Source: an uncultured Clostridia bacterium
Lineage (GTDB): Bacteria; Bacillota; Clostridia; TANB77; CAG-508
Assembly: GCA_947589265.1 (NCBI GenBank)
Contig: CANQAI010000001.1
Span: 14,484 to 78,483 of the forward strand
DNA length: 64,000 bases
Reading direction: 5' to 3'
Both the position numbers and the translations under genes were made by a program. Numbering within the stretch: the first letter of the stretch is position 1; each line of letters begins with the position of its first letter. Positions 14 to 30,926 of this stretch are shown piece by piece. The notes under the pieces were generated by a model. That model was not told the DNA's origin and did no database searches. It worked only from the letters and a program-made list of their open reading frames with translations.

Positions 14-1282
14 TTGTTATTAAATAAAGGGCTAATAATGGAAAAATATATTACTTTTGAAAGTAATATAGATAAAATAATAGAATCTTTTGAAGGAAAT
101 GCTGCAGATGAAATTGATGTAGATGCTGACATTTCTGGCTTGGTAGATACTATTATTAAAACTGCTATGGAAAAAAGAGCAAGTGATATTCACGTTGAGC
201 CACAAGAAGATAAGGTAAGAATTAGATACAGAATAGATGGAAAGCTTAGCACAGCAGTAGAAATTGGCAAAGATAAACAAGCACAATTAATAGGTAGACT
301 AAAAGCAATTTCTAATATGCACCAAGAAAAACAAGAATCTCAAGATGGTAGAATATTAAATTATCCAGAATATAACATTCGTGTATCATCACAAAAAAAT
401 GTATATGGAGAAAAATTCGTATTAAGATTATTAAAGAAAAATAATAATATTAGACGTATTTTTGAATTAGGATTTCCAGAAGATGAAGAATTAGTTAAAA
501 ATAGTTTTAATAAAAGAAATAGTATTACAATAATTGCAGCACCAACTGGTGAAGGTAAAACAACAACACTTTATAGTATTATAGACTATTTAAATAATCC
601 ACATATAAACATTACTACTATTGAGGACCCTGTAGAAATTAGAATTAATGGGCTAAACCAAATTGAAATAGATGCTAAAGAAACATTCTCAGATTCATTA
701 AGAACTGTTTTAAGACAGGACCCAGATATTATACTAGTAGGAGAAATTCGTGACACAGAAACAGCAGAAATCGCAATGCAAGCAGGACAAACAGGTCACT
801 ATGTTTTATCTACAATACATACCATAGATAGTATAGAGGTTATTACAAGACTTAGAAAAATGGGGATATCTAACTATGATATAGCAAGTATTTTAGCAAC
901 ATCAGTATCACAAAGACTAGTAAGAAGAATATGCCCATATTGCTCAGTAGAAAGAGACTTTAATAAAAAAGAAATTGAAGTAATAAATAAAATTGGTGAA
1001 AAATATGGAGTTAAGTTCGACTTAACTAATAAAAGAACTTATACTGCAGTAGGATGCAAAAAATGTAATAATACTGGTTACCTAGATAGAATTGGTATTT
1101 TTGAAGTATTAAATATTAGTGATGAAATTAAAGAATTAATCTCATCAAATTCATCTAGTATGGAAATAAGAAATGAAGCATTAAAATTAGGCTACAAACC
1201 ATTAGTTGTAGATGGAATTTATAAAGTTTTAAACGGAATAACAACATTAGATGAACTAAATAGCAAGTTAGTTATTTATTAA
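14..1282 (+). CDS. Type IV pilus / type II secretion assembly ATPase of the GspE/PilB family. It is a short form; the frame is open to the window edge and the first ATG is at 38, so it may be 5'-partial.
   Basis: Walker A IIAAPTGEGKTTTL, Asp box IEDPVE, Walker B DIILVGEIRD, His box GHYVLSTIHT, ASDIHVEP N2-domain motif, C-terminal CxxC..CxxC zinc motif (CPYC...CKKC). Confidence 0.8.
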   Translation: MLLNKGLIMEKYITFESNIDKIIESFEGNAADEIDVDADISGLVDTIIKTAMEKRASDIHVEPQEDKVRIRYRIDGKLSTAVEIGKDKQAQLIGRLKAISNMHQEKQESQDGRILNYPEYNIRVSSQKNVYGEKFVLRLLKKNNNIRRIFELGFPEDEELVKNSFNKRNSITIIAAPTGEGKTTTLYSIIDYLNNPHINITTIEDPVEIRINGLNQIEIDAKETFSDSLRTVLRQDPDIILVGEIRDTETAEIAMQAGQTGHYVLSTIHTIDSIEVITRLRKMGISNYDIASILATSVSQRLVRRICPYCSVERDFNKKEIEVINKIGEKYGVKFDLTNKRTYTAVGCKKCNNTGYLDRIGIFEVLNISDEIKELISSNSSSMEIRNEALKLGYKPLVVDGIYKVLNGITTLDELNSKLVIY

Positions 1283-1299
1283 TACATAGGAGGAAAACA

Positions 1300-2424
1300 A
1301 TGGTTGATATAGATAAAATTTTAAATGAAGCAATAAGAAAAGATGCTTCAGACGTGCATTTAATCTCAGGAATAAAACCTATTTTAAGAATTAAAAGAGA
1401 ATTAGTTGAAGCTGAAAATTCTAAAGAATTAACCAATGATGATATGATAGAAATCTATGATTATTTTGTAAGAGGAAATGTAGACAAAGATAAGGTATAT
1501 AGAGAAACTAAAAAACTAGATTGCTCTTATGTATTCGGAGATATTAGACTAAGAGTTAATATTTCAACAGTAGATGAAGTTCCAGTGCTTGTACTAAGAT
1601 TAATAAAAAATACACTTCCAAAATATGAAGACTTAGGAGTACCAGATATAGTTAGAAGAATGATGAACCAAACTCAAGGTTTAATACTAGTAACTGGTAA
1701 AACAAACTCAGGTAAAACAACAACATTAAATGCACTTATTAATGAAATAAATGAAAATCAAAATAAAAAAATACTAACACTAGAAAACCCAGTAGAATAT
1801 AAACATAAATGCAAAAAATCAATTATTGTTCAAAAAGAAATAGGACTAGGTAGGGACTGCCTAGATTATAGTTCTGGTGTTAAGAACTCTTTAAGAGAGG
1901 ACTGCGACATTCTAGTTATAGGAGAGATTCGTGATAAAGAAACTATGGAAGCAGCCATTGAAACAGCAGAAGCAGGACACTTAGTAATAGGAACACTTCA
2001 CACAAAATCTTGTGCAGAAACTATCGATAGAATGATAAACTTCTACGATATTCGTGACCAACAAACAGTAAAATACTTAATATCATCATTATTAAAACTA
2101 GTAGTTTCTCAGAGATTATTAAAAGGTAAAGATGGTTCACTTGTTTTAGTGCCTGAAGTAATGGTAGTAGATAATATTATAGCAGGAATAATTCGTAAAG
2201 AGAAAATTAGTATTTCTGAAATAGAAGATGCTATTCAAAGTAACTCAGACAAAGGAAGTATTGGTTTAATAAATTCCTTAGCTAAGTTATTTGTACAAGA
2301 TAAAATCACATTAGACCAAGCAAAATCTCAAATGGAAGAGAAAAACATTGAAATTTTAAATAGAACAATTATGCAATTAAAGATTAAAAAAGATAGTGGA
2401 ATTGGTTCTCAAGTTAGCCATTAA
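1300..2424 (+). CDS. pilT: Type IV pilus retraction ATPase of the PilT family
   Basis: Walker A GKTNSGKTTTL, LENPVEY box, DILVIGEIRD, His box AGHLVIGTLHT, about 370 aa. RBS AGGAGG upstream. Confidence 0.8.
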   Translation: MVDIDKILNEAIRKDASDVHLISGIKPILRIKRELVEAENSKELTNDDMIEIYDYFVRGNVDKDKVYRETKKLDCSYVFGDIRLRVNISTVDEVPVLVLRLIKNTLPKYEDLGVPDIVRRMMNQTQGLILVTGKTNSGKTTTLNALINEINENQNKKILTLENPVEYKHKCKKSIIVQKEIGLGRDCLDYSSGVKNSLREDCDILVIGEIRDKETMEAAIETAEAGHLVIGTLHTKSCAETIDRMINFYDIRDQQTVKYLISSLLKLVVSQRLLKGKDGSLVLVPEVMVVDNIIAGIIRKEKISISEIEDAIQSNSDKGSIGLINSLAKLFVQDKITLDQAKSQMEEKNIEILNRTIMQLKIKKDSGIGSQVSH

Positions 2425-2442
2425 AATGAAGGAGATGATAAA

Positions 2443-3795
2443 GTGCCAGAATATATGTATAAAGCTGTTACTAAGCAAGGGCAGATAGTTAAAAACAGAG
2501 TAGAACAGGCCAACAAAAATAATTTAATACAAAAGCTTAAAAGTAATGGGTTACTTCCTATTGAAGTAATACAAATAGGATATGGAGGCAAAAGAAAAAG
2601 AGTAAATAAAAGAAATGTAATGGATATAGATGAAATTATGCAAACTTCAAACTCAGCTATTATTTCTCAAGGAAGTACGGCAAATAAACAAACAATAAGA
2701 GAAAAATTTAATATTGCCTTATCTATTGGACAAAGAATTACTGAGAGGGATCTTGTAATTTTCACACAAAACTTTTATTTATTAAAAAAGGCAAACTTCA
2801 ATAATATACATGCTTTAAGCACTATTATAAACAGTACAGAAAACTTATCATTTAAAGGTGTACTAGAAGATATTCTAGCAGGTGTAGAAGCCGGAGAATA
2901 TATGTACACCACAATGGAATATTACTCAGATATATTTCCATATATATATATAAATATGATTAGGGTAGGAGAACTTTCTGGTTCACTTACAAAATCTTTG
3001 GAACAAGCAGTAAAATACTTAGATGAAACAACGGCTAGAACAAAGAAAATAAAAAGTATTGTAATACCAAATATTGCTCAATTTATAGCAATACTTGTTC
3101 TATTAATTGTAGGAACATTATATGTATTACCTGCAATACAAGACGTATTTATACAAATGGGCAGTAATGCAGAACTTCCAGGAATAACATTATGGTTTAT
3201 GGACTTCTTAGACTTAGCAATGGCATATTGGTACATTCCAGTTGGAATTATTTTAGCAATTATAGGAATTATAGTTGCATATATAAACACACCAAAAGGA
3301 AAATACAATTGGCATTACTTTAAATACAAAGCACCTATTTTTGGTAGATTAATATTTGGCATAGACTTTTCAAGACTAATGAGAGCAATGCTTTTAAATT
3401 TACAAAATGGAATGAGAATTCAAGAAGCATTAGAAGTTAGTAAAACAGTAGTAAAAAATTATGTAATGCTATCAATAATAGAAACAGCTATTAACAACTT
3501 ACTTATTGGTGATTCATGGATAGAGCCATTTGAAAACTCAGGACTATGTAAATCAATGGAAATTGAAATGTTGAAAATAGGTATGCAAACTGACCTTTCA
3601 GAAATGATGGAAAAATTACTAGACTATATGGATGCAGATATACAACAAAGCTTAAACAACTTAATGAAGGTATTACCAGAAATATCTTACTTATTCGTTG
3701 GAATAATATTAATATTCTTAGTAGTTGTAGTACTTGTACCATGTATCCAATTATACATGGGCAACTGGTTGATAGAAGCATTAACAGCACAATAA
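2443..3795 (+). CDS. pilC: Type IV pilus / T2SS inner-membrane platform protein of the PilC/GspF family
   Basis: About 450 aa, two GspF-type repeats each followed by transmembrane segments. GTG start with AAGGAG RBS. Immediately follows the pilB-like and pilT genes. Confidence 0.8.
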   Translation: MPEYMYKAVTKQGQIVKNRVEQANKNNLIQKLKSNGLLPIEVIQIGYGGKRKRVNKRNVMDIDEIMQTSNSAIISQGSTANKQTIREKFNIALSIGQRITERDLVIFTQNFYLLKKANFNNIHALSTIINSTENLSFKGVLEDILAGVEAGEYMYTTMEYYSDIFPYIYINMIRVGELSGSLTKSLEQAVKYLDETTARTKKIKSIVIPNIAQFIAILVLLIVGTLYVLPAIQDVFIQMGSNAELPGITLWFMDFLDLAMAYWYIPVGIILAIIGIIVAYINTPKGKYNWHYFKYKAPIFGRLIFGIDFSRLMRAMLLNLQNGMRIQEALEVSKTVVKNYVMLSIIETAINNLLIGDSWIEPFENSGLCKSMEIEMLKIGMQTDLSEMMEKLLDYMDADIQQSLNNLMKVLPEISYLFVGIILIFLVVVVLVPCIQLYMGNWLIEALTAQ

Positions 3796-3796
3796 T

Positions 3797-3832
3797 GGGG
3801 ACTGTCCCTATTGGGACAGTTCTCTTTTTTTG
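3797..3832 (+). terminator. Rho-independent terminator after pilC
   Basis: Perfect 8-bp stem ACTGTCCC/GGGACAGT (3801-3808 and 3813-3820), loop TATT, followed by the run TCTCTTTTTTT. Confidence 0.6.
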
Positions 3833-3865
3833 GGGTGCCACTTTGGAAAGGAATGGATATTTATT

Positions 3866-4801
3866 ATGAAAATAGGGATTGATATAGGTGGAAGTCATAT
3901 TGGAATTGGCGTAGTAAATGAAAATGGTAAAATAATAGAAAAATACGAAACAGATTTAAGCAATAATCAAGTTGCTTTAAATAATACTAATGAGTCAAAC
4001 CTAAATAATGAAATAAGTTTAAATATAACTGAATTTATAGAAAAATATATTATAGAAAATATTAAAAAAATTCAGAAAAACTATAATATAGATGTGATTG
4101 GCGTGGCAAGTCCTGGAACTCCACAAAATGGAAAAATTACTACTATGGTGAACTTAGGCATAAAAGAGCTAGATATTACTAATATTATACAAAAAGTATA
4201 CAATGGAAAAATAATTGTAAAAAATGATGCAAAATGTGCAGGCTTGGCAGAAAAAACTTATGGAAGTTTAAACAAATATGATGATTGTGTATTTTTATGT
4301 TTAGGAACAGGAATTGGTGGTAGTGTATTTATAAATGGAAAACAGCTAGAACCTAAAAGATATCCAGCTTTTGAAATAGGGCATATGGTTATACAAAAAG
4401 ATGGAAAAATTTGCAACTGTGGAAAAAAAGGCTGTTTTGAAACTTATTGTTCTATAAAAAGGCTAAAAGATGAATTAATACAAGAATTAAATTTAAACAA
4501 AGAAATTATGGCAAAAGATTTATTAGAAATAATAAAGTCTAAAAATCAAGACGAAAATGTACGAAGAATAATAAAAGAATATATAAATAATTTAATTGTA
4601 GGTCTTTCAAATATAATAGACATATTTGAGCCTGAAGCAATTGCTTTGGGTGGTAGCTTTGTATATTTTGAAGACATTCTTTATAATGAATTAGTAAAAA
4701 CATATAACGAAAAAAGGTATGCCTTTAATAAGGAAAAATTGCCAGAATTAAAACTTGCTATTTTATGTAATGATGCAGGAATTATTGGTGCAACACTATA
4801 A
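3866..4801 (+). CDS. ROK-family sugar kinase (glucokinase-like)
   Basis: MKIGIDIGGSHIGIGVV N-terminal ATPase motif and ROK zinc motif CNCGKKGCFETY. I chose the ATG at 3866 because the ORF-track start at 3830 lies inside the pilC terminator. An N-rich low-complexity insert is present. Confidence 0.75.
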   Translation: MKIGIDIGGSHIGIGVVNENGKIIEKYETDLSNNQVALNNTNESNLNNEISLNITEFIEKYIIENIKKIQKNYNIDVIGVASPGTPQNGKITTMVNLGIKELDITNIIQKVYNGKIIVKNDAKCAGLAEKTYGSLNKYDDCVFLCLGTGIGGSVFINGKQLEPKRYPAFEIGHMVIQKDGKICNCGKKGCFETYCSIKRLKDELIQELNLNKEIMAKDLLEIIKSKNQDENVRRIIKEYINNLIVGLSNIIDIFEPEAIALGGSFVYFEDILYNELVKTYNEKRYAFNKEKLPELKLAILCNDAGIIGATL

Positions 4802-4823
4802 ATAAGTTAACATAAGTCATAAT

Positions 4824-4852
4824 TTGACAAAAGTAAAAAAAAACGCTATAAT
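4824..4852 (+). promoter_or_regulatory. Sigma-A type promoter for rnj (TTGACA-17-TATAAT)
   Basis: TTGACA at 4824-4829, exact 17-nt spacer, TATAAT at 4847-4852. It lies about 270 nt upstream of the rnj ATG. Confidence 0.55.
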
Positions 4853-5123
4853 AGATGCTAGTTGTTACCAAATTTGGTAAAGAAGAGATTTATATATAAA
4901 AAACAAATCAAAATAATATAATTAGAAATAAAATAAAATATGTTTAATGTCCGGAATTTTAGTTAAACATATATATTTTATTTATATTTTTTATGCAATG
5001 TTTAGTTTAAAAATTGAAAAATGGTAAATCATACAAATAGTATAAAATGATTTATTTGTTTTTGTAATTTATTAAAAAATATATAAACCTGAAAAACAAG
5101 AAAAAAGGAGAGATAAAAAAATA

Positions 5124-7034
5124 ATGTTAACAAATGAAAGGCATCAAAGTAATAGAAGAGAGAAAGATACTACTATTACAAACAAAAGAAGAAATGTTTA
5201 TGCAAGTTCAAACTTAGATCCTACACAAAATAATGGAGAAAAACTAAAGACTTCACAAAGCAGATTAGGTCAAAACAGAACTCAAAGAACAGAAACAAGA
5301 AGTACACACTCTAGAGCATTAAATGAGAGAAAATTAGAAAAAAAAGCTTTAGAAGAAAAAGACAAATTTGAATTTAAAAAAGAGAATTTAAAAATTATTC
5401 CTTTAGGAGGGCTAGAGGAAATAGGAAAGAACATAACAGTTTTTGAATATGGAAATGAAATAGTGCTTGTAGACTGTGGCTTAGAGTTCCCAGAAGACGA
5501 CATGCTAGGTGTAGACCTAGTAATACCAGACATAACCTACCTAGAAAGAAACAAGGAAAAAATAAAAGGTTTAGTAATCACACATGGACACGAAGACCAT
5601 ATTGGAGCAATACCATATATATTAAAACAAATAAATATTCCTATTTATGCAACTAAACTAACAGTAGCTTTAATAAAAAATAAATTAGAAGAACATAACT
5701 TAGAGAAAACCACAAAAATACACATTGTAGAACAAGGCAAAACTATTAATTTTGGAAAAATGAAAGTAGAATTTATACGTAGCAACCATAGTATTCCAGA
5801 CTCTGTAATGCTTGCTATTCATACACCAGTTGGAGTTGTACTTCATACAGGAGACTTTAAAATAGACTATACCCCAATTGATGATAAAGTAATAGACTTA
5901 GGAAGAATAGCAGAACTAGGTAACAAAGGAATTTTAGCATTACTTTCAGATAGTACAAATAGTGAAAGAAAAGGATATACAATGTCAGAAAGCTCTGTTG
6001 GAGAAGTATTTGACAAGTTATTTTTAAATAACACTAAAAGAATTGTTGTAGCAACATTTGCATCTAATGTTCACCGTGTACAACAAATTGTAAACTCATC
6101 TATAAAATACGGTAGAAAAATTGCTGTATGTGGTAGAAGTATGATGAACATGATAGAGGCTGCAATAGAACTAGGCTACATCAATGTACCAGCCAATACT
6201 TTCATTGACATAGATAATATAAACAACTATAGAGATGACCAATTAGTTATAATAACTACAGGAAGCCAGGGCGAGGCTATGTCAGCACTTACCAGAATGG
6301 CAAACGGAGAGCATAAAAAAGTAACTATTACACCAAATGATATGGTTATTATTTCAGCAACTCCAATACCAGGAAACGAAAAACTAGTGTCTAAGGTAAT
6401 AGATGAATTAATGAAAATAGGTGCAACTGTTATTTACAGTTCTTTAGAGGCTATTCACGTATCTGGTCACGCTTGTCAAGAAGAGCAAAAGTTAATATTA
6501 ACATTAGCTAAACCAAAATATTTTATGCCAGTTCACGGTGAATATAGGCAACTTATAGCACATGCTGAAACTGCTAAAAAAGTTGGAATAGAGCCTCAAA
6601 ACATATTTATAATGTCAAATGGTAGAACACTAGAATTAAATGAAAATGAAGCCAAAATTACTACTTCTGTACCAAATGGAAAAATATTAGTAGATGGTTT
6701 AGGCATAGGTGATGTTGGAAATATTGTTTTAAGAGATAGACAACATTTATCACAAGATGGATTAATTGTAATTGTAATGACAATGGATACATCAACAGGA
6801 GAAATAGTTTCTGGACCAGACGTAGTATCAAGAGGATTTGTTTATGTTAGAGAATCTGAAAACTTAATGGAAGAAGTAAAAAGAGTAGCAAGAGAAGAAG
6901 TTAAAAGATGTGAAGAAAGTCATATTCGCGATTGGGCAACTATTAAATCTAATGTAAAAGATACACTAAGAGATTATATTTTTGAAAGAACAAAACGTAA
7001 CCCAATGTTACTCCCAATTATTATGGAAGTTTAA
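5124..7034 (+). CDS. rnj: Ribonuclease J (beta-CASP metallo-beta-lactamase RNase) with an N-terminal extension of about 85 aa that is basic and low-complexity
   Basis: KIIPLGGLEEIGKN, HGHEDHIGA motif, beta-CASP and C-terminal domain. The only in-frame ATG upstream of the catalytic core is at 5124. Confidence 0.9.
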   Translation: MLTNERHQSNRREKDTTITNKRRNVYASSNLDPTQNNGEKLKTSQSRLGQNRTQRTETRSTHSRALNERKLEKKALEEKDKFEFKKENLKIIPLGGLEEIGKNITVFEYGNEIVLVDCGLEFPEDDMLGVDLVIPDITYLERNKEKIKGLVITHGHEDHIGAIPYILKQINIPIYATKLTVALIKNKLEEHNLEKTTKIHIVEQGKTINFGKMKVEFIRSNHSIPDSVMLAIHTPVGVVLHTGDFKIDYTPIDDKVIDLGRIAELGNKGILALLSDSTNSERKGYTMSESSVGEVFDKLFLNNTKRIVVATFASNVHRVQQIVNSSIKYGRKIAVCGRSMMNMIEAAIELGYINVPANTFIDIDNINNYRDDQLVIITTGSQGEAMSALTRMANGEHKKVTITPNDMVIISATPIPGNEKLVSKVIDELMKIGATVIYSSLEAIHVSGHACQEEQKLILTLAKPKYFMPVHGEYRQLIAHAETAKKVGIEPQNIFIMSNGRTLELNENEAKITTSVPNGKILVDGLGIGDVGNIVLRDRQHLSQDGLIVIVMTMDTSTGEIVSGPDVVSRGFVYVRESENLMEEVKRVAREEVKRCEESHIRDWATIKSNVKDTLRDYIFERTKRNPMLLPIIMEV

Positions 7035-19224: not shown

Positions 19225-19845
19225 ATGATTGATAAATTTTGTGATTGGGTAACAAATAAAATTAAACAAGATGTAGATAACATAGATGAAGAAAAAGAAC
19301 TTGTAATTAATTTTGGGGTAAGGCTTATATTTGGTGAACTACCAAAAATACTTTTACTATTTATAATTGGTTTTCTACTAGGTATTGGCTGGTATACATT
19401 AATATTCTTCTTGCTATTATGCCCTTATCGTAGTTTTACAGGTGGCTTTCATTTAAAAACACACTTAGGATGTATAATTACAACTAGCATACTATATTTA
19501 GGTCCAATTCTACTTGCAAAATATTTACCAATACAACAGGACTATATTTTATACATAATGTCTGGAATTGTGGCAGTTTTTAGCATATTTATTATAAGTA
19601 AATATGCTCCTGCAGATACTGAAAATATACCAATTTTAACTAAAAAAGAAAGAAAATCTAAGAAGATAAAAGCTTGTATTTCATTAATTATTTTAATGGC
19701 AATTATAATATTTTACCCAAACAAATTGATTAGCTATATACTTGTTTATGGAATATTTCTACAAAATTTAACTGTTCTACCAATAGCATATAAGCTTACA
19801 AATAACAAACATGGATATGAAGTATACACAGAAGGAACAGTTTAA
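19225..19845 (+). CDS. agrB: Accessory gene regulator B (AgrB-family membrane peptidase that processes the autoinducing peptide)
   Basis: 206 aa polytopic membrane protein with the AgrB signature LLLCPYRSFTGGFHLKTH (R...GG.H) and a C-terminal basic region. Confidence 0.8.
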   Translation: MIDKFCDWVTNKIKQDVDNIDEEKELVINFGVRLIFGELPKILLLFIIGFLLGIGWYTLIFFLLLCPYRSFTGGFHLKTHLGCIITTSILYLGPILLAKYLPIQQDYILYIMSGIVAVFSIFIISKYAPADTENIPILTKKERKSKKIKACISLIILMAIIIFYPNKLISYILVYGIFLQNLTVLPIAYKLTNNKHGYEVYTEGTV

Positions 19846-19914
19846 TAATTTATGGTAATAAAGCATTTGCCGGCAATGCTTATTATAAAAATTTATTTTT
19901 AAGGAGGAATACAA

Positions 19915-20034
19915 ATGTTAAAATTATTAGCTAAAATAGCTGAAAAATATGCTCAATCAACAAATACTGCATGCTGGGTTTTAGGAATTGTTCATCAACC
20001 AAAAATGCCTGCATCTTTAATAAAAAAAGACTAA
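19915..20034 (+). CDS. agrD: Autoinducing peptide precursor AgrD (39 aa). It is not in the ORF track.
   Basis: MLKLLAKIAEKYAQSTNTACWVLGIVHQPKMPASLIKKD. It has an N-terminal amphipathic leader, a single Cys for thiolactone formation and an HQP(E/K)xP C-terminal recognition tail as in clostridial AgrD. The RBS AAGGAGG is 7 nt before the ATG and the gene follows agrB directly. Confidence 0.7.
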   Translation: MLKLLAKIAEKYAQSTNTACWVLGIVHQPKMPASLIKKD

Positions 20035-20088
20035 CACTAAAAAACAAAATAGAATATAAATATTTCCTTAAAACATAAAAACGACAAA

Positions 20089-20132
20089 AATGAGTAGCAT
20101 ATTCTTAAAAGAAAAGCTACTCATTTTTTTAT
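20089..20132. terminator. Intrinsic terminator shared by agrBD (+) and the convergent kinase gene (-)
   Basis: 10-bp stem AATGAGTAGC/GCTACTCATT with a 17-nt loop, followed by TTTTTTT. Confidence 0.65.
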
Positions 20133-20197
20133 TACACACATAAGACTTAATAAATAGTAATGCAAAAATTATATACAAATAAATATAAAAGAAAGAA

Positions 20198-21552
20198 TTA
20201 ATAATAAATTTCAAATTGTTGCACAAAAAATTCATCATTTTTAGTAGTATATAAATTTAAGTTATTATTTTTCTTTAAAATTTGCCTTACTTCCCATAAA
20301 CCAAGTCCACTATTTGTTCTTTTAGATTTAGTGGAAAAATCTTTCTCAAAAATTTTATCTATATTTATATCCTTATTTTTATAAGTATTTTCAATTACCA
20401 TAACTATTCTTTTTCGATTTTCCTCTTTCCTAAAACTAACATGAACAATTTTTTCTTCACATTCCTCAGCAGCCTCAATAGCATTATCCATTAATATACC
20501 AAGAATTCTTGTAAATTCATAAATCTTCATATATTTTTCAATTTCATTTAAATCAATAAAAATGCCTAAATTAATTTGAACACCGATTTCATCTGCTTTA
20601 TGATGCTTAGTAGCCATAATATTATAAATGGCTGGATTATTAACAACATTTGGATTAAGTGCTGTTAAATTATTTACACGATTACAATCTTTTAAAAGCT
20701 GTGAATAATACTTTTTAAGTCCTTCTATATTATTAGTTTCTATATAACCTCCAATACCTTGAACTATATTATTAAAATCATGTTTAAAACCTCTCATACT
20801 ATCATGTAATAAAATTAATGTTTTATTATATAATTGTGCTTCTTCTAGACTTCGAGAAGTTGTTTCTAATTTGGAAGTATTAAATAAACTATAAAGACTT
20901 ATGAAAAAGTATGCAAGTAGACTAACAATGCTAATAATAGTAATGGCAATTGGCATTTTATCACTGTAAAATGAAATTAATGAAAGCTGTGTACTAATTG
21001 CAATTATTCCTAATATAGTGTTTACAATAAATAGGATCTTGTGTTTCTTAGTTAAATTCTCTAAATTAATGTGCAACTTAAAATAACGAATAATTCGATA
21101 AATTAAGTATATACATAAATAAATGCTAAGTGTAAACAATATCCTATATAGAGGAATTGTCATTACAAATTCATAAGGAATATGTAAAACAGATAAGTAA
21201 AATTGGAGCATAATTAATTCTAAAACACTAATTGCAATAATTGGAAGGAATAAGGCTATAAGTGATTTGAGAATATTAGCTTTCAAAATAAATTTTATAA
21301 GCAAAAATGTAGCAATCATATTAAGAAATGTAGCATATGGATTTGGTATAAAAATTCTAGAAACGAAAGCTATAATACCCATAACAGTTACGTAAATTAT
21401 TTTTACTTTTTTAGAACACTTAATATTCAAAATAGTGGTAAATAATAACATATCTACCCAAGTTTCAACAAAACAAGATATAAAACCAATCACATTTAAA
21501 GCTACCTCATTTGGTGTTGTTAGTGCCGTCCAAATTGTTTGAAAAATTTCCA
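20198..21552 (-). CDS. AgrC-like sensor histidine kinase (HPK10 subfamily, polytopic N-terminal sensor). The ORF track extends it to 21616.
   Basis: Six or seven N-terminal transmembrane helices, H-box region LHDSMRGFKHDFNN, GHKL ATPase with ENTYKN...SGLGLW. An internal ATG at 21552 has GGAGG 9 nt upstream. The gene overlaps the 3' end of the LytTR regulator gene. Confidence 0.75.
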
Positions 21553-22253
21553 TAATTAAAAACCTCCATAAATTTATTTTTATACTTAGGACCAATAAAA
21601 CATTTAGAACTTTCATTATTATTTAGAAAAATAGTACTAGTAGAAGTATTAACATCTGTAATCTTCTCAGTATTAACAATATAAGACTTATGACACTGAA
21701 CAAACTGCTCAGGAAGTTGTGGCAAAATCTTCTTGAAAGAACTATAAGTCTCATAATCTCTTGTATCTGTATGAAAAACTACTTTCATGCCTTCTTTTTG
21801 AATATATTGAATACTATCTTGTTTAATAATAGTTTTATTATTATCCAATCTAACAAACCTAGCCTCATCGCCAGATGTATCTTCAAATAATCTAATTAAA
21901 GTTTCTTCCAACCTTTCTGCCGTAATAGGCTTAGGCAAATAATCAAAAGTTTTATATTTATATGCCATCAAACCATATTCCAAATGACCGGTGGTAAAAA
22001 TAATATATACATTTTTATCTTTTTTACGAATCATATCAGCCAAATCAAGTCCAGAAATATTAGACTTTAACTCAATATCTAAAAATACAACATTAACGTT
22101 ATGATTTTTAATAAAAGTAGCCAATTCATCTGGCTTAGTTGTGCTAAGAACAATTTGAGCATCATACTTTTTTCTTATAAAAATAGACTCTAGCATTCTT
22201 TCTAATCTATTAAGAACATTAACATTATCATCACACAATACAAAATCTAACAT
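21507..22253 (-). CDS. LytTR-family response regulator (AgrA-like)
   Basis: Receiver domain (VLCDDN...FLDIEL with D and K residues) plus a C-terminal LytTR DNA-binding domain (FVRLDNNKTIIKQDSIQYI...CHKSYIVN). Confidence 0.8.
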   Translation of the reverse strand: MLDFVLCDDNVNVLNRLERMLESIFIRKKYDAQIVLSTTKPDELATFIKNHNVNVVFLDIELKSNISGLDLADMIRKKDKNVYIIFTTGHLEYGLMAYKYKTFDYLPKPITAERLEETLIRLFEDTSGDEARFVRLDNNKTIIKQDSIQYIQKEGMKVVFHTDTRDYETYSSFKKILPQLPEQFVQCHKSYIVNTEKITDVNTSTSTIFLNNNESSKCFIGPKYKNKFMEVFNYGNFSNNLDGTNNTK

Positions 22254-22514: not shown

Positions 22515-22543
22515 TTTACAAGTTTTTACTTAAAGTATATAAT
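22515..22543 (+). promoter_or_regulatory. Candidate sigma-A promoter for the surface peptidase gene (TTTACA-17-TATAAT)
   Basis: TTTACA at 22515-22520, 17-nt spacer, TATAAT at 22538-22543, about 50 nt upstream of the ATG at 22596. Confidence 0.45.
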
Positions 22544-22595: not shown

Positions 22596-25500
22596 ATGAA
22601 AAATTTAAAGAAAATATTTTTTACAATCTTATTAATTTTTATTCTATTTTTATTAGTAGATAAAAGTGTATTTGCAAGCACAAACCAATTTCAAAATAGC
22701 GAATACTCAGAAAAATTTAAAGAATGGTTAGAACTATCAGATGAAGAAAAACAAAATGTTTTGCAACCTAGAATGTACGATGTTTTACCAACAACTACTA
22801 ATTCCAAAAATATATTTTATAAAATAAGGCTATTAGGAGCAACCATTAATTCAACATATGATTTAAGAAATATAATACCAGCCAACTTAAAAATAAGAAA
22901 TCAAATGAATACAGAAGCTTGTTGGGCTTTTGCTGCACTATCTTCATTAGAAACTAATCTCGCATTATATGATTATAAACAAAATGGAAATGTTTCAAAT
23001 CCAAAAATATATGACTTTTCTGAAAGACATATGGACTATGCTACAAGCCAAACATTTAAGAATAACGCAAAAAATGAATTTGGATATAATAGGCAAGTTG
23101 CAGATGGAGGAAATTACCTAATTGCACAATCATATTTAACAAATGGAACTGGTGCAATAAATGAATCAGATATGAAATTCGAAAATAATATGTCACCAAT
23201 AGACTTAAGTGAAATACAAGGAAAAACTATTACAAGCCAAGTATATGATACAATAGAATTTCCAGATTATAATGCAAATGCAAATTCAGCTCAAAAATCA
23301 GAAATAATGAGACAAATTAAACAGCATATAAAAGATTATGGCTCAGCATCTGCCTCAACACATTCTGACATTTCAGGCTCATGTTACAATAATACTACTG
23401 GAGCTATTTATTGCAATAATTCTGAAACTCATAAACCAAACCATAATGTTTCCATTGTAGGATGGGATGATAATTATAGCAAAACTAATTTTTCAGTAGG
23501 GGCTCAGCCTAAGTCAAACGGTGCATGGATTATTAGAAATTCAGGTGGAGAAAGATTAGAATATGATTTAGCAAGAGTAAAGCAAGAAATATTTAATATT
23601 TTAAAAGAAGGAGGAAGAGCAGAAGAATACACTAGCCCAGACCAAATTCCAAATGATTTTTTAGAATACCTAGGATATACCATTGAAGGCCAAAAAGCGT
23701 ACTTAAAACTTGGAGACAATGGCTTTATGTATGTTTCATATGAAGACTGCAATGTAGCATCACAACTTTGGGGAATAATCAAAGCAACAAACAGCGTAAA
23801 TTATGAAAATATATATCAATACGATGAATTTGCCCCAGGGAGATCAACATATATACTTAACTCTAAAGCAATGCTAGCTAATATTTTTGAAAAGGAAACT
23901 AGTGGAGATGAATATTTAACACAAGTGTCGCTATATGCACCAGAAACATATACCTGCAAAGTATATGTAAATCCTAATGGAGAAGAACGTGATGCAGAAC
24001 ACTTAACTCAAGTTAATTTAAAAGCAGGAAAAACAGAAACCTTCGGTGTGGGTTATCATACTTTAGAATTTGCTCAGCCAATTAAAATAACTGGAACTAA
24101 GTTTACAGTAGTTATAGGAATACAAGGAACAAGGGAAAAAGTGGCTATAGCATTAGAATGTAAACCTAGTGATTCTAAAGTTTTGCAGAATGTAACAATA
24201 CAAGAAGGAAAATGTTTTATTGCAGGGGGAGATAGTCTAACAAATGCTACTTGGGACGACCTTAGTAAGTTATCTCAAAAAGATGGTGAATTACCAAACG
24301 GTGATAGCACAATAAAAGCATTTACAACATCAAAATCAGATATTAAAGCATTACAAAGCATACAAGTAGTTACACCACCAACTAAAACACAATATTTAAT
24401 CGGAGAAGATTTTGAAAAAGCTGGTATGAAAGTACAAGCAAATTATAGTGATGGAACACATACTATGTTACATGATACAGACTACAGCATCACAAATGGA
24501 ACAAACTTAGTAGCAGGACAAACAAGTGTAACAATAACTTATGAGGGACAAACTACCACACAAAAAATAACAGTAGGAAACAATAATGTAACTGCATTAA
24601 CAATAGAAACTCCTCCTACAAAAACAGAATACATAGAAGGAGAAAACTTTAATCCAGCAGGTATGGTAGTAAAAGCAACATACAAAGATGGAACTACAAA
24701 AGAAGTACCACAAACAGATTATACAATAGAAGATGGTAACAATTTAGATGCAAGACAAACTACAGTAACAATTTCATATGAAGGCCAATTAGTAACACAG
24801 GCCATAACAGTAACACAAAATCTTTTATTAGGAATAAGCATAACTAAAGCACCAAACAAAACAGAATATATAGTTGGACAAAACTTTAATCCAGAAGGAA
24901 TGATTGTTACAGGAACATATCAAAACGGAACAACTCAAACTATACTAGACTACACAGTAGAAAATGGAACTAACTTAACTAAAGAACAAACTTCAGTAAC
25001 AATAAAATATAAAGATAAAACAGCAACTCAAGCTATAACAGTTGTAGAAAAAACAATTACAGCAATTTCAATAAATACAGAACCAACAAAATTAACATAT
25101 ATTAAAGAAAAAGAAAACTTAGACTTGACAGGTGGAACATTAAAAATCACATACAATGATGGAACATTTGAAACTATTCCAATGACAGCAGAAGGAGTAA
25201 CAGTAACAGGATTTAGCAATGAAAAAGTAGGAAAAGTTACAATTACAGTTACATATCAAAACAAAACAGTTCAATTTGAGGTTCAAATAGTAGAAGAAAA
25301 AGCTGAAAACTCAAATTTAAGTAATGCTACAAGTAATGTAAAAAAAGTAAAAGCTTATTTTTACACAAATGGAACCAAAAAAGATTATGTATTAATAGAT
25401 GTAGAAGTAAATAACATTTCATTAAATAAAAATAATGACAAAGTTGAATACTATTATTACTTATCATCAAATGCAAACGAAGAACAAATAACAAATTGGG

Positions 25501-25886
25501 TAAAAATTACAGAAGCACAAAATGATAATAATAAACTACAATTTACAATAGACTCAAGGAAAATTTCAAATTATAGTGAAATATCAGATGAAGGTGTTGT
25601 ATATTTATATGTAAAAGAAGTAGCAATAAAAGGTGGAGACCAAAGTGTAGAGGTTTCTAAATCAATGAAACTAGAAACAGATAAAGAAGTAGAAACTTAT
25701 GTAAATGATGTAAAAAAAGATACCTCACAAACAAATAAACCAGGAACCAATGACAAAGATGACACTACTGCACCTGGAAAAATTCCAGATACAGGAATTG
25801 CACCAGTTATTATAATTTGTATAGCAGGTTTAGCAGTATTTGGTGTGGTTACATATATTAAATACAATAAATTCAAAGAATCTTAA
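22596..25886 (+). CDS. Secreted or cell-surface C1-family papain-like cysteine peptidase with four Big_3-type Ig-like repeats and a C-terminal sorting-like signal
   Basis: Signal peptide. C1 catalytic triad contexts NTEACWAFAA (Cys), HNVSIVGWDDNY (His) and NGAWIIRNSGG (Asn). Four repeats of about 75 aa (PPTKTEYI.G..F...GM.V.A.Y.DGT...). C-terminal IPDTG followed by a hydrophobic helix and a KYNKFKES tail. Confidence 0.8.
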   Translation: MKNLKKIFFTILLIFILFLLVDKSVFASTNQFQNSEYSEKFKEWLELSDEEKQNVLQPRMYDVLPTTTNSKNIFYKIRLLGATINSTYDLRNIIPANLKIRNQMNTEACWAFAALSSLETNLALYDYKQNGNVSNPKIYDFSERHMDYATSQTFKNNAKNEFGYNRQVADGGNYLIAQSYLTNGTGAINESDMKFENNMSPIDLSEIQGKTITSQVYDTIEFPDYNANANSAQKSEIMRQIKQHIKDYGSASASTHSDISGSCYNNTTGAIYCNNSETHKPNHNVSIVGWDDNYSKTNFSVGAQPKSNGAWIIRNSGGERLEYDLARVKQEIFNILKEGGRAEEYTSPDQIPNDFLEYLGYTIEGQKAYLKLGDNGFMYVSYEDCNVASQLWGIIKATNSVNYENIYQYDEFAPGRSTYILNSKAMLANIFEKETSGDEYLTQVSLYAPETYTCKVYVNPNGEERDAEHLTQVNLKAGKTETFGVGYHTLEFAQPIKITGTKFTVVIGIQGTREKVAIALECKPSDSKVLQNVTIQEGKCFIAGGDSLTNATWDDLSKLSQKDGELPNGDSTIKAFTTSKSDIKALQSIQVVTPPTKTQYLIGEDFEKAGMKVQANYSDGTHTMLHDTDYSITNGTNLVAGQTSVTITYEGQTTTQKITVGNNNVTALTIETPPTKTEYIEGENFNPAGMVVKATYKDGTTKEVPQTDYTIEDGNNLDARQTTVTISYEGQLVTQAITVTQNLLLGISITKAPNKTEYIVGQNFNPEGMIVTGTYQNGTTQTILDYTVENGTNLTKEQTSVTIKYKDKTATQAITVVEKTITAISINTEPTKLTYIKEKENLDLTGGTLKITYNDGTFETIPMTAEGVTVTGFSNEKVGKVTITVTYQNKTVQFEVQIVEEKAENSNLSNATSNVKKVKAYFYTNGTKKDYVLIDVEVNNISLNKNNDKVEYYYYLSSNANEEQITNWVKITEAQNDNNKLQFTIDSRKISNYSEISDEGVVYLYVKEVAIKGGDQSVEVSKSMKLETDKEVETYVNDVKKDTSQTNKPGTNDKDDTTAPGKIPDTGIAPVIIICIAGLAVFGVVTYIKYNKFKES
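24340..25300 (+). repeat. Four tandem coding repeats of about 225 nt (Ig-like Big_3 domains) within the peptidase gene
   Basis: Protein-level repeats share the ETPPTKTEYIEGENFNPAGMVVKATYKDGTT...VTISYEGQ consensus. Identity is imperfect, so these are diverged repeats. Confidence 0.6.
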
Positions 25887-25985
25887 GAGAATAATTTTAA
25901 AATCAAATAAAAACAGAGAATATGTTGTTGGCTATATGCCAAACTATTCTCTTTTTTATAAATTAAAATAGAAAGGGAGCATTTT

Positions 25986-28900
25986 ATGAAGAAAAAAATT
26001 GCAAAACTTATAGGCTTACTTATTTTTATTTCAATAGTTATAGTAACTGCATGTAATATTTATAACTGGATTGTAACCGGAAAGCAACGAATAAAAATAA
26101 ATACAGCAAGTAAAGCTTATGCAAATAGTGATTTATATGTATCTATTATTGCACAAAAAAATGGAGTAGATTTAGAAACAAAAACTAAGCTAAAATTACT
26201 AAACTCTGAAGGAAAAAAAGTAAAAAATGTAGCTATTAAATATGATGGAAATAATAACATTATAAGCATCCCAGATGTTGAAGCAGGTAACTATTATATA
26301 GAAGCAAAGGTATCTAGTAAGGCAGGAAAAGACACTATACAAGAAAAGATTTATATATCTAATGAAAATATGGAAAATGTAACAATTACTTTAGATAAGG
26401 GAATATATAAGCCCGGAGATAAAGTTAATTATAGAGCATTATTAACAGCTAAAGAAAATGATGAACCTATTAGCAAAGATGTAAATGTTAGTATTTATGA
26501 TGGGAATGATAATAGAGTTTATAATGAAAACTTAAAATCTTCTGATTATGGTATAATAAGTGGAAATTTTACTTTGGCAAACGAAGTTAACAGTGGACTA
26601 TATAAATTAGTAGTAAAAACCCAAAATAGTCAAACTGAAAAACAATTTAAAGTAAATCCATATATTACGCCTAAATATGAAGTAAAAGTAAACTATGATA
26701 AAGAAAATTACTTAGTGGGAGAAACAGCAAAAATAACATTTAATGCAAAATACTTTTTTGGAGAAGCAGTTCAAAATGCTAATCTAACAGTTTATATTAA
26801 TAATGAAAAGTATAAAACATTACAAACAGATTCACAAGGAACAGCAGAAATTAGCTATCAAATAAAAGATGCTAAAAAATATGATATAAAAGTAGAAGCA
26901 GTAGACTCTTCAAATTATTTTGTTGAAACAACAAGTAGTTTTATAGCTGGAACAGACATATTTGAAGTAGAATTATTACCTGAATATGGCATACTAGCTG
27001 CAGAGAAGAATAATAACGTATACATATTTACATCTAACACAGATGGCACACCATTAAAAACATATGTTACAGTATCTTCCAATAATTTTACTAAACAAGT
27101 AGCAACAGATGAAAATGGTATTGGTAAATTCTCAATAGATATAGATAAAATAAGTGCAAATAATTATTCTGGAAGTTATAATAATAGCAAAAAAACCACA
27201 AAAGAATTTTCTATTGTAGCAGAAGACACAAAAGGAAATACAGTACGAAAAACTTTAAGCTTAACAGTAGAACAAAAGAATTTATTGGTATCAACTAATA
27301 AAGCAAAATATGAACAAGGCGAAGATATAGAAATTAACATATCTTCAATAAATGAAGCTACAAGAAATATTTATGTATTTAAAAACGACAAATTAATAAA
27401 AATGTTAAGTACAGATTTAGACAATACAAAAATAAACTTAGAAGATACTTATGGTTTAATAGATATTTATGTAACAGAAAATATAGAAAAAGAGTACAAA
27501 TATTACAATACATATGATAGCAATAAATACAAAAAAACAATATTTATAAATCCAGCTAAGAAGTTAAACATAGATATAAGTACAGATAAAAAAGAATATA
27601 AACCTGGAGGAAAAATTAATATTTCATTTAATACAGCAGATGAAAATAAAACAGGAGTAGATTCTGCTTTACTTGTAAGTATACTAGATAATTCTGTATT
27701 AAATTTAGCTAATAATGATTTATCAATAGATAATATAAAATTAGCTTTGCAAGACATAAAATTTTCAAACGAATTAGATGCAGCAAGCTTATATTCTTGT
27801 ATAGTAAATAATAAATCAGAACAAGCCATAATGGCATTATTACTAAAACAAAGCGATAAAGATATTAAAGTATCAGAAGCTAGAATATACAATTATGACC
27901 AAGAACTAAAATCAGCAATAATATCAATTATTTCAATAACAATTATTGCAATAATAGTTATTACATTTTTATGTAGAAGATTTAAAAAGTTTAGGAATAT
28001 ATTAAAACATATAATTAACTTTATAGTATATGACCTTATATTAGTTGTAATATCTATATGCATTATAGAAAAATTCTTCTGGGGAGCTAACTACTCATGG
28101 GGAATGTTTGCAATAATAACAATATTAGGATTAACAACATATATATTGCTTTTAGCTAAGTTAAATAAAAAAATATTTAGAACATCAATTTCAATAATCA
28201 TAACTTGTATGATTTTTATGTTGTTAGCTATTTTAATTAGTGAATTTGAAGTATCACCAATAGTTCTTGGCTTAATATTTGCTGTGTTATTTCTAATTAT
28301 AGTTATAATAGCAAAAATTAGCCAAGTAAAGAAATTAAAAATAGATAAATATATGCAGATTATAATTAAAGAAATATTATATATATTAAAATTTATAGGA
28401 GCATTAGTAATTTCTTTAGTTATAGGAGGAGTTATACAAGCAATAATACAAATACCTGAAGCAATAATACCAGTAACTTTAATTTGTTTATACTTATTTA
28501 ATTATTTGTTTAATAAATCAAATAAAGAGGAAAAAGAAAAAATATATTCAAAAACTATATCAATAGGACTTTCTACTTTAATAGTCTTAGCAGTAATAGG
28601 AATTATAGCAGTAGTATATGGATTAATGTATTTTGTTTCTAAGCAAGCTGGTGGCACATTAGATAATGCTGCTGTGGACTCTGACATTGTAGAAAGTGGA
28701 GGATTCGGATTAGGAAGTGTAGAGCCAGCCCCTGATAGCACATCTATATCTTCTAGCAATAATTTCTTTGATGGAGTACTTTCTGCAAATAAAGGAGAAA
28801 GCAATTCTCAGCAACAAGCAAACACTACAAACAAAGAAGAACCTCAAATTGTAAAAGATGATAATATAAGAAATGTATTTTTAGAGAGCATGTGCTTTAT

Positions 28901-30926: not shown

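Follow-up and report, generated by a model that had tools for sequence, protein, structure and literature searches.

The subject of this report is a single gene within a window of 64,000 nucleotides of DNA from an uncultured Clostridia bacterium (GenBank assembly GCA_947589265.1, contig CANQAI010000001.1, positions 14,484 to 78,483 of the forward strand); positions given below count from the first letter of that window, and residue numbers refer to the 1646-residue product of the gene. The gene lies at 25986-30926 on the plus strand, and its assignment to the alpha-2-macroglobulin (A2M) and thioester-containing protein (TEP) superfamily is supported by profile searches in which all of the hallmark domains score. 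What sets it apart is a block of eight predicted transmembrane (TM) helices in the middle of the protein, apparently inserted at the bait position. An earlier note on this DNA, made from the letters alone, had read an uninterrupted open reading frame (ORF) of 1646 residues here, and the frame is indeed one intact run of 1646 codons with no interruption. The gene and its immediate flanks comprise the following features, for which models were made with AlphaFold2 (AF2), per-residue model confidence is given as pLDDT, selection is measured as the ratio of nonsynonymous to synonymous substitution rates (dN/dS), and L004 is the closest relative.

25972..25979, plus strand: Shine-Dalgarno sequence AAAGGGAG, 7 nt before the ATG of the A2M-like gene, read from the sequence
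25986..30926, plus strand: whole gene, for a 1646-residue membrane-integrated A2M/TEP-like thioester protein; intact ORF with full-length homologues in more than 100 independent assemblies
25986..26081, plus strand: N-terminal export signal, residues 1-32, MKKK followed by a hydrophobic segment; hydropathy, and an AF2 helix at residues 2-30
26088..27707, plus strand: MG1-MG6a array, predicted extracellular, residues 35-574; Pfam, AF2 beta-sandwiches at pLDDT 80-90, dN/dS 0.10 against L004
27708..27860, plus strand: helical sub-domain before TM1, residues 575-625, NDLSIDNIKLAL...SEQ..MALLLKQ; conservation and AF2 models
27912..28631, plus strand: eight-helix transmembrane block, residues 643-882, at the bait position; hydropathy, loop charges, AF2 and conservation
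28641..28850, plus strand: candidate bait, a disordered hypervariable linker, residues 886-955; pLDDT, conservation, dN/dS and alignment to human A2M
28851..29150, plus strand: MG6b strand (IRNVFLESMCFIPEL) and A2M/MG7, residues 956-1055; Pfam, alignment to human A2M, near-invariant in the family
29151..29453, plus strand: N-terminal half of CUB, residues 1056-1156; position between MG7 and the thioester domain (TED), alignment to the CUB of human A2M, AF2 beta strands
29454..30314, plus strand: TED, residues 1157-1443; Pfam TED_complement and PDB matches
29517..29531, plus strand: thioester motif GCFEQ, residues 1178-1182; translation, and present in every full-length relative
29856..29858, plus strand: His1291 (TGSHxGG), 112 residues past the thioester Cys; a His in nearly all family members
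30654..30884, plus strand: receptor-binding-type (MG8/RBD) domain, residues 1557-1633; Pfam A2M_recep, and alignment to the RBD of human A2M
31021..31064, plus strand: hairpin 3' of the gene, -22.1 kcal/mol by RNAfold; a possible terminator without a U-run

Along the protein, Pfam recognises MG2 at residues 134-223 (E 4.6e-19), with the YKPGD signature of the earlier note present as GIYKPGD at 139-145; MG3 at residues 226-289, which at 22.3 bits falls slightly under the 23.1 cut-off; A2M_BRD, corresponding to MG5/MG6a, at residues 434-574 (E 4.2e-7); A2M/MG7 at residues 969-1055 (E 1.9e-19), which takes in the segment NITTWTIQT...FKDFFVDFELP (residues 991-1029) that had been read as an A2M domain; TED_complement at residues 1157-1443 (E 4.8e-37, 128 bits), matched over model positions 7-309 of 312; and A2M_recep at residues 1557-1633 (E 5.9e-10). 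The A2M and TED domains thus score in profile searches, as the note had anticipated, and the last two matches agree with the TED-like region and C-terminal receptor-binding domain that it had proposed. In the AF2 model there are six N-terminal beta-sandwiches plus MG7. No Pfam CUB model scores on the window protein, and the CUB assignment comes from the alignment to human A2M.

The thioester machinery is complete at the sequence level. The CxEQ motif had been noted as GCFEQ and is found at residues 1178-1182, where C1179, E1181 and Q1182 are invariant across 99 family sequences, and the thioester hallmarks are invariant throughout the family. In C3, TEP1 and A2ML1, a His near the thioester confers hydroxyl reactivity (PMC7864068). 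His1291 pairs with the TEP1 His and lies 2 residues off the CD109/A2ML1 His in pairwise alignments whose loop alignment is uncertain, and it is a possible counterpart of the His of C3, TEP1 and A2ML1. From homology, the protein is predicted to carry a preformed thioester between Cys1179 and Gln1182 and to capture its target covalently on cleavage.

The membrane block and the candidate bait

Hydropathy (Kyte-Doolittle) places the N-terminal hydrophobic segment at residues 8-30, and the first 8 residues hold a mean of 3.7 K/R across the family. The segment would be a cleavable signal peptide, with a candidate cleavage site at a conserved [IV]-x-A, or else a signal-anchor (TM0) that stays uncleaved. 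Lipoprotein anchoring through VTAC, which in the window protein resembles a lipobox, was also considered and was rejected as a family trait because the Cys is not conserved, being F, Y, S or another residue in most relatives.

The same method finds eight hydrophobic helices between BRD and MG7, at residues 643-882. Across 25 diverse members of the family, the loops TM1-2, TM3-4, TM5-6 and TM7-8 have net charges of +4.1, +2.6, +4.0 and +1.1, with 3.3-5.4 K+R each, and the loops in between, of 3-9 residues, are neutral to acidic (net -1.2, -0.6 and -0.2). This alternation is the textbook positive-inside pattern, by which the N-terminus would be inside and both A2M halves extracellular. The path indicated for the chain would thus lead from the N-terminus inside to MG1-MG6a (about 540 residues) outside, through eight passes of the membrane, and out again into the linker, MG6b, MG7, CUB, TED and RBD. 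In two AF2 runs the TM1-7 bundle is modelled at a pLDDT of about 90 and TM8 at 45-70. The block has a dN/dS of 0.31-0.54, which means that it evolves in frame under purifying selection, and it contains 12 strongly conserved positions (H675, N678, Y719, T733, S736, L770, K788, Y799, Y836, N839, N843 and G872), mostly polar and mostly close to the cytoplasmic ends of the helices. The helical sub-domain that precedes TM1 ranks with the best-conserved parts of the protein (mean majority-residue fraction 0.83, dN/dS about 0 against L004); AF2 gives it 3-4 helices at a pLDDT of about 45-75, below the TM core.

Searches with the TM block led back to the family itself. The best Pfam scores were for TgpA_N (E 0.12) and DUF5693 (E 0.53), neither of them significant, and NCBIfam had no match for the full-length protein. 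A profile of the block searched against 1.84 billion representative proteins gave 33 matches, all of them to the same A2M family or its fragments except for P0146 and P0151, which match at chance level. Foldseek found no fold match for the block in the PDB (E >= 3.7). The idea that the block is a known transporter, enzyme or channel fused into an A2M is unsupported, and the module is taken to be family-specific because it has no relative in Pfam, among the 1.84 billion representatives or by Foldseek. One short sequence from these searches, P0135 (398 residues), appears to have the N-terminal anchor and MG1 joined directly to the eight-TM block and to be devoid of the other A2M domains; it would be either a degraded copy or a natural variant consisting of the TM module only.

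The stretch that follows TM8 has a different character. No part of the protein is less conserved than this linker (pLDDT 28-45 in two AF2 runs): its majority-residue fraction is 0.32, versus 0.67-0.84 in the ectodomains, and its dN/dS of about 0.8 (0.64-0.98) is nearly neutral, against 0.07-0.33 in the ectodomains. Its length varies from 59 to 109 residues across the family, and it is rich in S/T/D/N/E/G, with 17.6% Ser. In a HMMER alignment, residues 949-968 of the query (NKEEPQIVKDDNIRNVFLESMCF) pair with residues 722-741 of human A2M (HVEEPH-TETVRKYFPETWIW), where the bait of human A2M stops at its C-terminal side and MG6b begins; the linker's own C-terminus aligns with this end of the human bait, HVEEPHTETVRKYFPETW. 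By this alignment the TM block and the 70 residues that follow it would take up precisely the place that the bait has in metazoan A2M and that ANA has in C3. The block is probably an insertion at that position, with a bait retained as the linker after TM8. The earlier note had the eight helices replace the bait region and MG7; the helices are where it put them, but MG7 is present at 969-1055 and a bait is probably kept at 886-955. Midway along the linker there is a semi-conserved motif, with consensus SS..SILDG...F.SS, which in the window reads NNFFDGVLSANKG (28755-28800, residues about 924-938) and might serve to dock onto the MG ring or the bundle.

A family in gut Clostridia and its relatives

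The window protein belongs to a family with many members. There were 389 significant matches among 5.8 billion clustered proteins, and the best 120 of these, on which the analysis of homologues is based, all belong to the family itself; they are 46-92% identical, most are about 1650 residues long and cover the whole query, and at least 98 full-length clusters hold an uninterrupted ORF of about that length. The central hydrophobic block and GCFEQ are present in 120 of the 120, and in full-length members at 40-46% identity as well. A scan of one genome per GTDB species yielded 40 confirmed loci, every one in a metagenome-assembled genome of uncultured Clostridia, Clostridiales, Lachnospiraceae or Candidatus Scatovivens, with sources that include rabbit, Hadza and other human guts, chicken, sheep, roe deer, cattle rumen and mouse. 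Among the long A2M-like ORFs from these loci, the block was found in all that span the region and GCFEQ in all that reach the TED. The architecture therefore recurs in at least 120 clusters and 40 species-level genomes, a question that the earlier note had raised for Clostridia, and because block and thioester motif recur together in 120 homologues and 40 independently assembled genomes with the same ORF, misassembly, chimerism and frameshift are ruled out.

The composition of the gene (GC 26.2%, and 13.7% at third codon positions, GC3) is native to an AT-rich host, with a GC of 27.8% for the window, and recent horizontal transfer was rejected on the match of GC and GC3 to the rest of the window. 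The window also carries the sporulation genes yabP and yqfD, consistent with a Clostridial host. From Clostridial taxonomy we infer a monoderm envelope.

Ranking of A2M relatives by sequence was done against proteins of solved structure in the PDB. Human A2M (E 6.8e-44 by single sequence, 9e-65 by family profile), A2ML1 (6.9e-43 and 7e-66) and CD109 (6.7e-43 and 3e-67) score best, followed by TEP1 (4.5e-34 and 5e-52) and C3 (3.1e-28 and 3e-48), and the TED alone finds CD109 (4.5e-25), TEP1 and A2ML1 as its best PDB matches. The E. coli protein ECAM and Salmonella A2M (SaA2M) are missing from the 60 best PDB profile matches. By fold the picture is similar: the AF2 model of residues 1-1200 matches CD109, C3, A2ML1 and C5 first in Foldseek, at E values of about 1e-37 to 1e-35, so that the structural model agrees with an A2M-like protein as the note had expected, and ECAM and SaA2M rank 34 and 48. 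In sequence, then, the family appears much closer to metazoan CD109, A2ML1, A2M and TEP1 than to ECAM. The metazoan proteins share with it the domain order of MG1-6, bait position, MG7, CUB with inserted TED, and RBD/MG8, and the CxEQ thioester with a conserved His nearby. The window protein is, however, bacterial, its identity to metazoan TEPs in structural alignments is only about 11-13% and the similarity is local, its motif reads GCFEQ versus GCGEQ in metazoan TEPs, and its bait position holds an eight-helix polytopic domain, where the metazoan proteins have a short soluble bait and C3, C4 and C5 have ANA. Glycosylation and disulfide-dependent features offer no basis for comparison with them. 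CD109 is itself membrane-tethered, through a glycosylphosphatidylinositol (GPI) anchor.

Bacterial A2Ms have been described as two types: type I, for which the model is ECAM, a lipoprotein linked to pbpC, and type II, for which it is MagD, without a thioester, encoded in the mag operon and anchored through MagB (PMC5764988). The window protein resembles type I (ECAM/YfhM and SaA2M) as a bacterial, membrane-associated CxEQ protein with a candidate bait; the type I proteins are protease traps. ECAM, however, is a lipoprotein in a diderm periplasm, whereas the window protein lacks a conserved lipobox and its host is a spore-forming Clostridium. E. coli YfhM scores in Pfam on bMG1, A2M_bMG2, bMG3, bMG5, bMG6, bMG10 and CUB_A2MG, and the window protein has none of these bacterial-specific domains at E<=0.01. 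BLASTP against YfhM gives an alignment of no more than 118 residues, around the thioester (26% identity, E 5e-4), and both results lead us to reject membership in the ECAM type. E. coli yfhM adjoins pbpC, and among the recurrent neighbours of the A2M-like gene in 43 loci there is no penicillin-binding protein (PBP), PBP1c included. The ECAM-like identity implied when the earlier note called the protein a bacterial A2M did not hold up, the nearest sequence relatives being metazoan TEPs. Type II proteins (P. aeruginosa MagD and E. coli YfaS) are likewise bacterial, A2M-like and held at the membrane. MagD, though, lacks CxEQ, belongs to the mag operon of six genes and depends for anchoring on a separate membrane protein, MagB (PMC5764988), whereas the window family has an invariant thioester, no operon and a built-in membrane domain. 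With complement C3, C4 and C5 the likeness is a topological analogy, in that a folded helical module lies between MG6a and MG6b with the trigger cleavage just downstream; ANA, however, is a soluble four-helix module of about 75 residues that is released as an anaphylatoxin, and the TM module is membrane-spanning, about 240 residues long and unrelated in sequence.

Two reviews from 2026 place the A2M family in metazoans and, among bacteria, mainly in Gram-negatives; they describe its members as soluble or as anchored by a lipid or a partner, and mention no Gram-positive or transmembrane forms (PMC12939704, PMC13069473). A full-text literature search found nothing on Clostridial or membrane-embedded A2Ms, and the only source name recovered for family records was "hypothetical protein", and a look-up by exact sequence gave no record of the window protein; an already annotated family, which the earlier note had wished to see excluded, did not come to light. 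Its remark that the topology would differ from that of the bacterial A2Ms described so far holds for all of them, given an eight-helix domain in mid-protein. The superfamily is a known one, and the novelty lies in the group of hosts, in a sequence affinity that is metazoan-like and in a polytopic module built into the chain. The family extends the A2M superfamily to single-membrane gut Clostridia. Because its sequence is far nearer to animal TEPs, CD109 and A2M than to ECAM, it brings back a long-standing question, that of gene flow between hosts and the organisms that colonise them. That the bait position tolerates a whole polytopic membrane domain also makes the family a natural experiment in the coupling between bait cleavage and the conformational switch.

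What the protein may do

On balance, we consider it somewhat probable that the protein works as a thioester-dependent trap for proteases, integrated into the cytoplasmic membrane of a single-membrane, spore-forming gut Clostridium and acting on that membrane's outer face. A protease that crossed the wall to the membrane would cut the exposed linker; cleavage would release the spring-loaded body and expose the Cys1179-Gln1182 thioester, and the protease would become covalently linked to the TED, as in other A2Ms, with both chains held together by the shared MG6 sheet. The bundle would act as an anchor, since the protease complex would stay on the cell through TM1-8 (plus TM0 if uncleaved), and, in the absence of a periplasm or a lipobox, it would keep the bait at the surface of the membrane. 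A functional precedent in envelope defence comes from ECAM and SaA2M, which trap proteases while anchored in the periplasm (PMC5764988, PMC4498604), and by analogy the trap would be the monoderm counterpart of the lipid-anchored periplasmic ECAM, a parallel that we lean towards, if only slightly. The animal-gut origin of all carriers fits a protease trap, guts being protease-rich; members occur in gut genomes of human, rodent, rabbit, poultry and ruminant, and the family may aid survival in protease-rich intestinal contents. Of the two roles that the earlier note had suggested for the hydrophobic block, tether is the minimal supported one, and pore finds no support, the bundle being without homologue or structural analogue. 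The bundle may nonetheless do more than anchor, because of its twelve conserved, mostly polar residues near the cytoplasmic helix ends.

Several points weigh against a protease trap. Thioester formation, bait cleavage and protease capture are all projected onto the protein from its homologues. An eight-helix bundle with conserved polar residues seems over-engineered for tethering, because one anchor helix or a lipid suffices to tether. No conserved partner, such as PBP1c, ties the family to envelope repair in the 43 loci. The SS..SILDG...F.SS motif within the linker would be needless in a pure bait, and the linker, with only 6.6% K/R, is no obvious bait for trypsin. Finally, a molecule beneath the peptidoglycan would meet only those proteases small enough to cross the wall.

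Alternatively the protein could be a sensor or transducer of proteases, which we regard as unlikely. Cleavage of the linker would then free or move TM8, and the rearrangement of the A2M body would be passed to TM1-7, leading to signalling through a partner or the gating of a channel. The insertion does sit exactly at the trigger element, TM8 has far lower confidence than TM1-7 in both AF2 runs, as would a loosely packed or mobile helix, conserved H675, N678, Y719, T733, Y836, N839 and N843 lie at cytoplasm-proximal helix ends, and purifying selection on the block (dN/dS 0.3-0.5) goes beyond the needs of a greasy anchor. However, the protein has no cytoplasmic domain, its inside loops being only 8-17 residues long; no conserved kinase, sigma/anti-sigma pair or transporter adjoins it in the 43 loci; the bundle is unlike any known receptor, channel or transporter; and cleavage, being irreversible, would allow one signal per molecule. 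A more specific version, in which a single polypeptide is the whole protease receptor and cleavage of the bait drives the A2M spring, which mechanically re-arranges a 7+1-helix bundle to open a conduit or expose a cytoplasmic-face site formed by those seven residues, so that proteolytic attack from outside is answered inside the cell, strikes us as improbable; if true, no thioester protein before it would have been linked in so direct a way to signalling across the membrane. To this improbable reading also belongs the idea that the family goes back to an old exchange in which TEP genes passed between animals and the Clostridia of their guts.

The affinity to animal TEPs raises a further possibility, to which we likewise give little weight, namely covalent tagging in the manner of C3 and TEPs. 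The activated thioester would couple to hydroxyl or amine groups for wall tethering, adhesion or opsonin-like marking, and its target might be wall polymers of the same cell, an adjacent cell, mucus, or a phage or particle that invades. Gram-positive bacteria use thioester domains of a different fold in covalent adhesion. In sequence the protein is nearest to CD109, TEP1 and complement proteins and not to ECAM, and the conserved His1291 is at, or within 2 residues of, the hydroxyl-reactivity His of C3, TEP1 and A2ML1. Yet a polytopic protein under the wall is poorly placed to reach host surfaces, an exposed linker of such hypervariability is what marks a promiscuous bait for proteases, a protease would still be required for activation, and the protein keeps its A2M-type RBD and MG7 in full, like members of the inhibitor type.

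Local gene order suggests yet another role, which we think very unlikely, in which the trap shields the membrane from the cell's own protease, possibly under agr-type control. On the same strand, 99 bp upstream of the A2M-like gene (22596-25886, plus strand), lies a gene for a sortase-type surface cysteine protease of 1096 residues, with a signal peptide, a Peptidase_C1 (papain) domain with the catalytic motifs CWAF and H..IVGW, four Big_3 domains, and a C-terminus with a PDTG sorting motif, a hydrophobic helix and a basic tail; a locus of agrB, agrD, histidine kinase and LytTR genes lies beside it in divergent orientation. This protease is next to the A2M-like gene in only 2 of 43 loci, however, those of the window and of L004, with other neighbours elsewhere, and a hairpin with a U-run (-18.7 kcal/mol) stands between both genes. 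Self-protection would therefore be at most a lineage-specific addition and not the function of the family. That the hydrophobic block is a separate gene, or a fusion made by frameshift or misassembly, can be dismissed with near certainty, given that full-length clusters, at least 98 of them, and 40 species-level genomes assembled independently from many hosts have the same ORF, that purifying selection acts in frame, and that GC and GC3 match.

Genomic neighbourhood

No gene partner of the A2M-like gene is conserved across the 43 loci. The recurrent neighbours are gap, pgk, tpi, mreB, GT2 and a radical-SAM enzyme, and these reflect glycolytic and housekeeping synteny inside one subclade, in which the A2M-like gene lies between mreB and gap-pgk-tpi. 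In other lineages it adjoins phospholipid-synthesis genes (CDP-alcohol phosphatidyltransferase), a glucoamylase gene or a gene for an SLH protein. In the window, the genes downstream are a polysaccharide deacetylase gene, the sporulation genes yabP and yqfD, and ybeY.

A scan of the window for promoters and terminators returned the same counts as shuffled sequence, and only the hairpins were confirmed, by folding. The surface-protease and A2M-like genes are separated at 25907-25959 by a nested hairpin (AGAGAATA...TTGGC-TATAT-GCCAA...TATTCTCT; -18.7 kcal/mol) followed by UUUUUU. The A2M-like gene may depend on read-through from upstream, because only about 27 nt lie between this hairpin and its start codon. 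A near-consensus promoter, TTTACA-17-TATAAT, is found at 22515-22543, before the surface-protease gene. The agr-type quorum-sensing locus occupies 19225-22253, divergent from that gene, and consists of the following.

19225-19845, plus strand: agrB
19915-20034, plus strand: AgrD candidate of 39 residues, MLKLLAKIAEKYAQSTNTACWVLGIVHQPKMPASLIKKD
20198-21616, minus strand: AgrC-like GHKL histidine kinase
21507-22253, minus strand: LytTR response regulator

Three further observations concern genes near the A2M-like gene, in the window or in other loci. An ORF of 402 residues at 33594-34802 (plus strand), between yqfD and ybeY, has no Pfam match at E<=0.001, and its position is kept in 4 related loci. 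In the mreB subclade, an ORF of 85 residues (MKEYNLKEVDSTSAGNLPVLVGMWSKVKHF...), without a Pfam match, is conserved directly upstream of the A2M-like gene and after mreB, with gap-pgk-tpi downstream (loci L022, L026, L028-L031, L033, L035, L038, L040, L041 and L043); it lies about 66-230 bp upstream in most of these loci and 1513 bp upstream in L040, and it has no counterpart in the window. In locus L001, a few kb upstream of the A2M-like gene, a protein of 1483 residues with a weak Cap4-nuclease match (988-5439), a Fic-domain gene and a RhuM-like gene form a group that may be a defence or mobile island beside the A2M-like gene.

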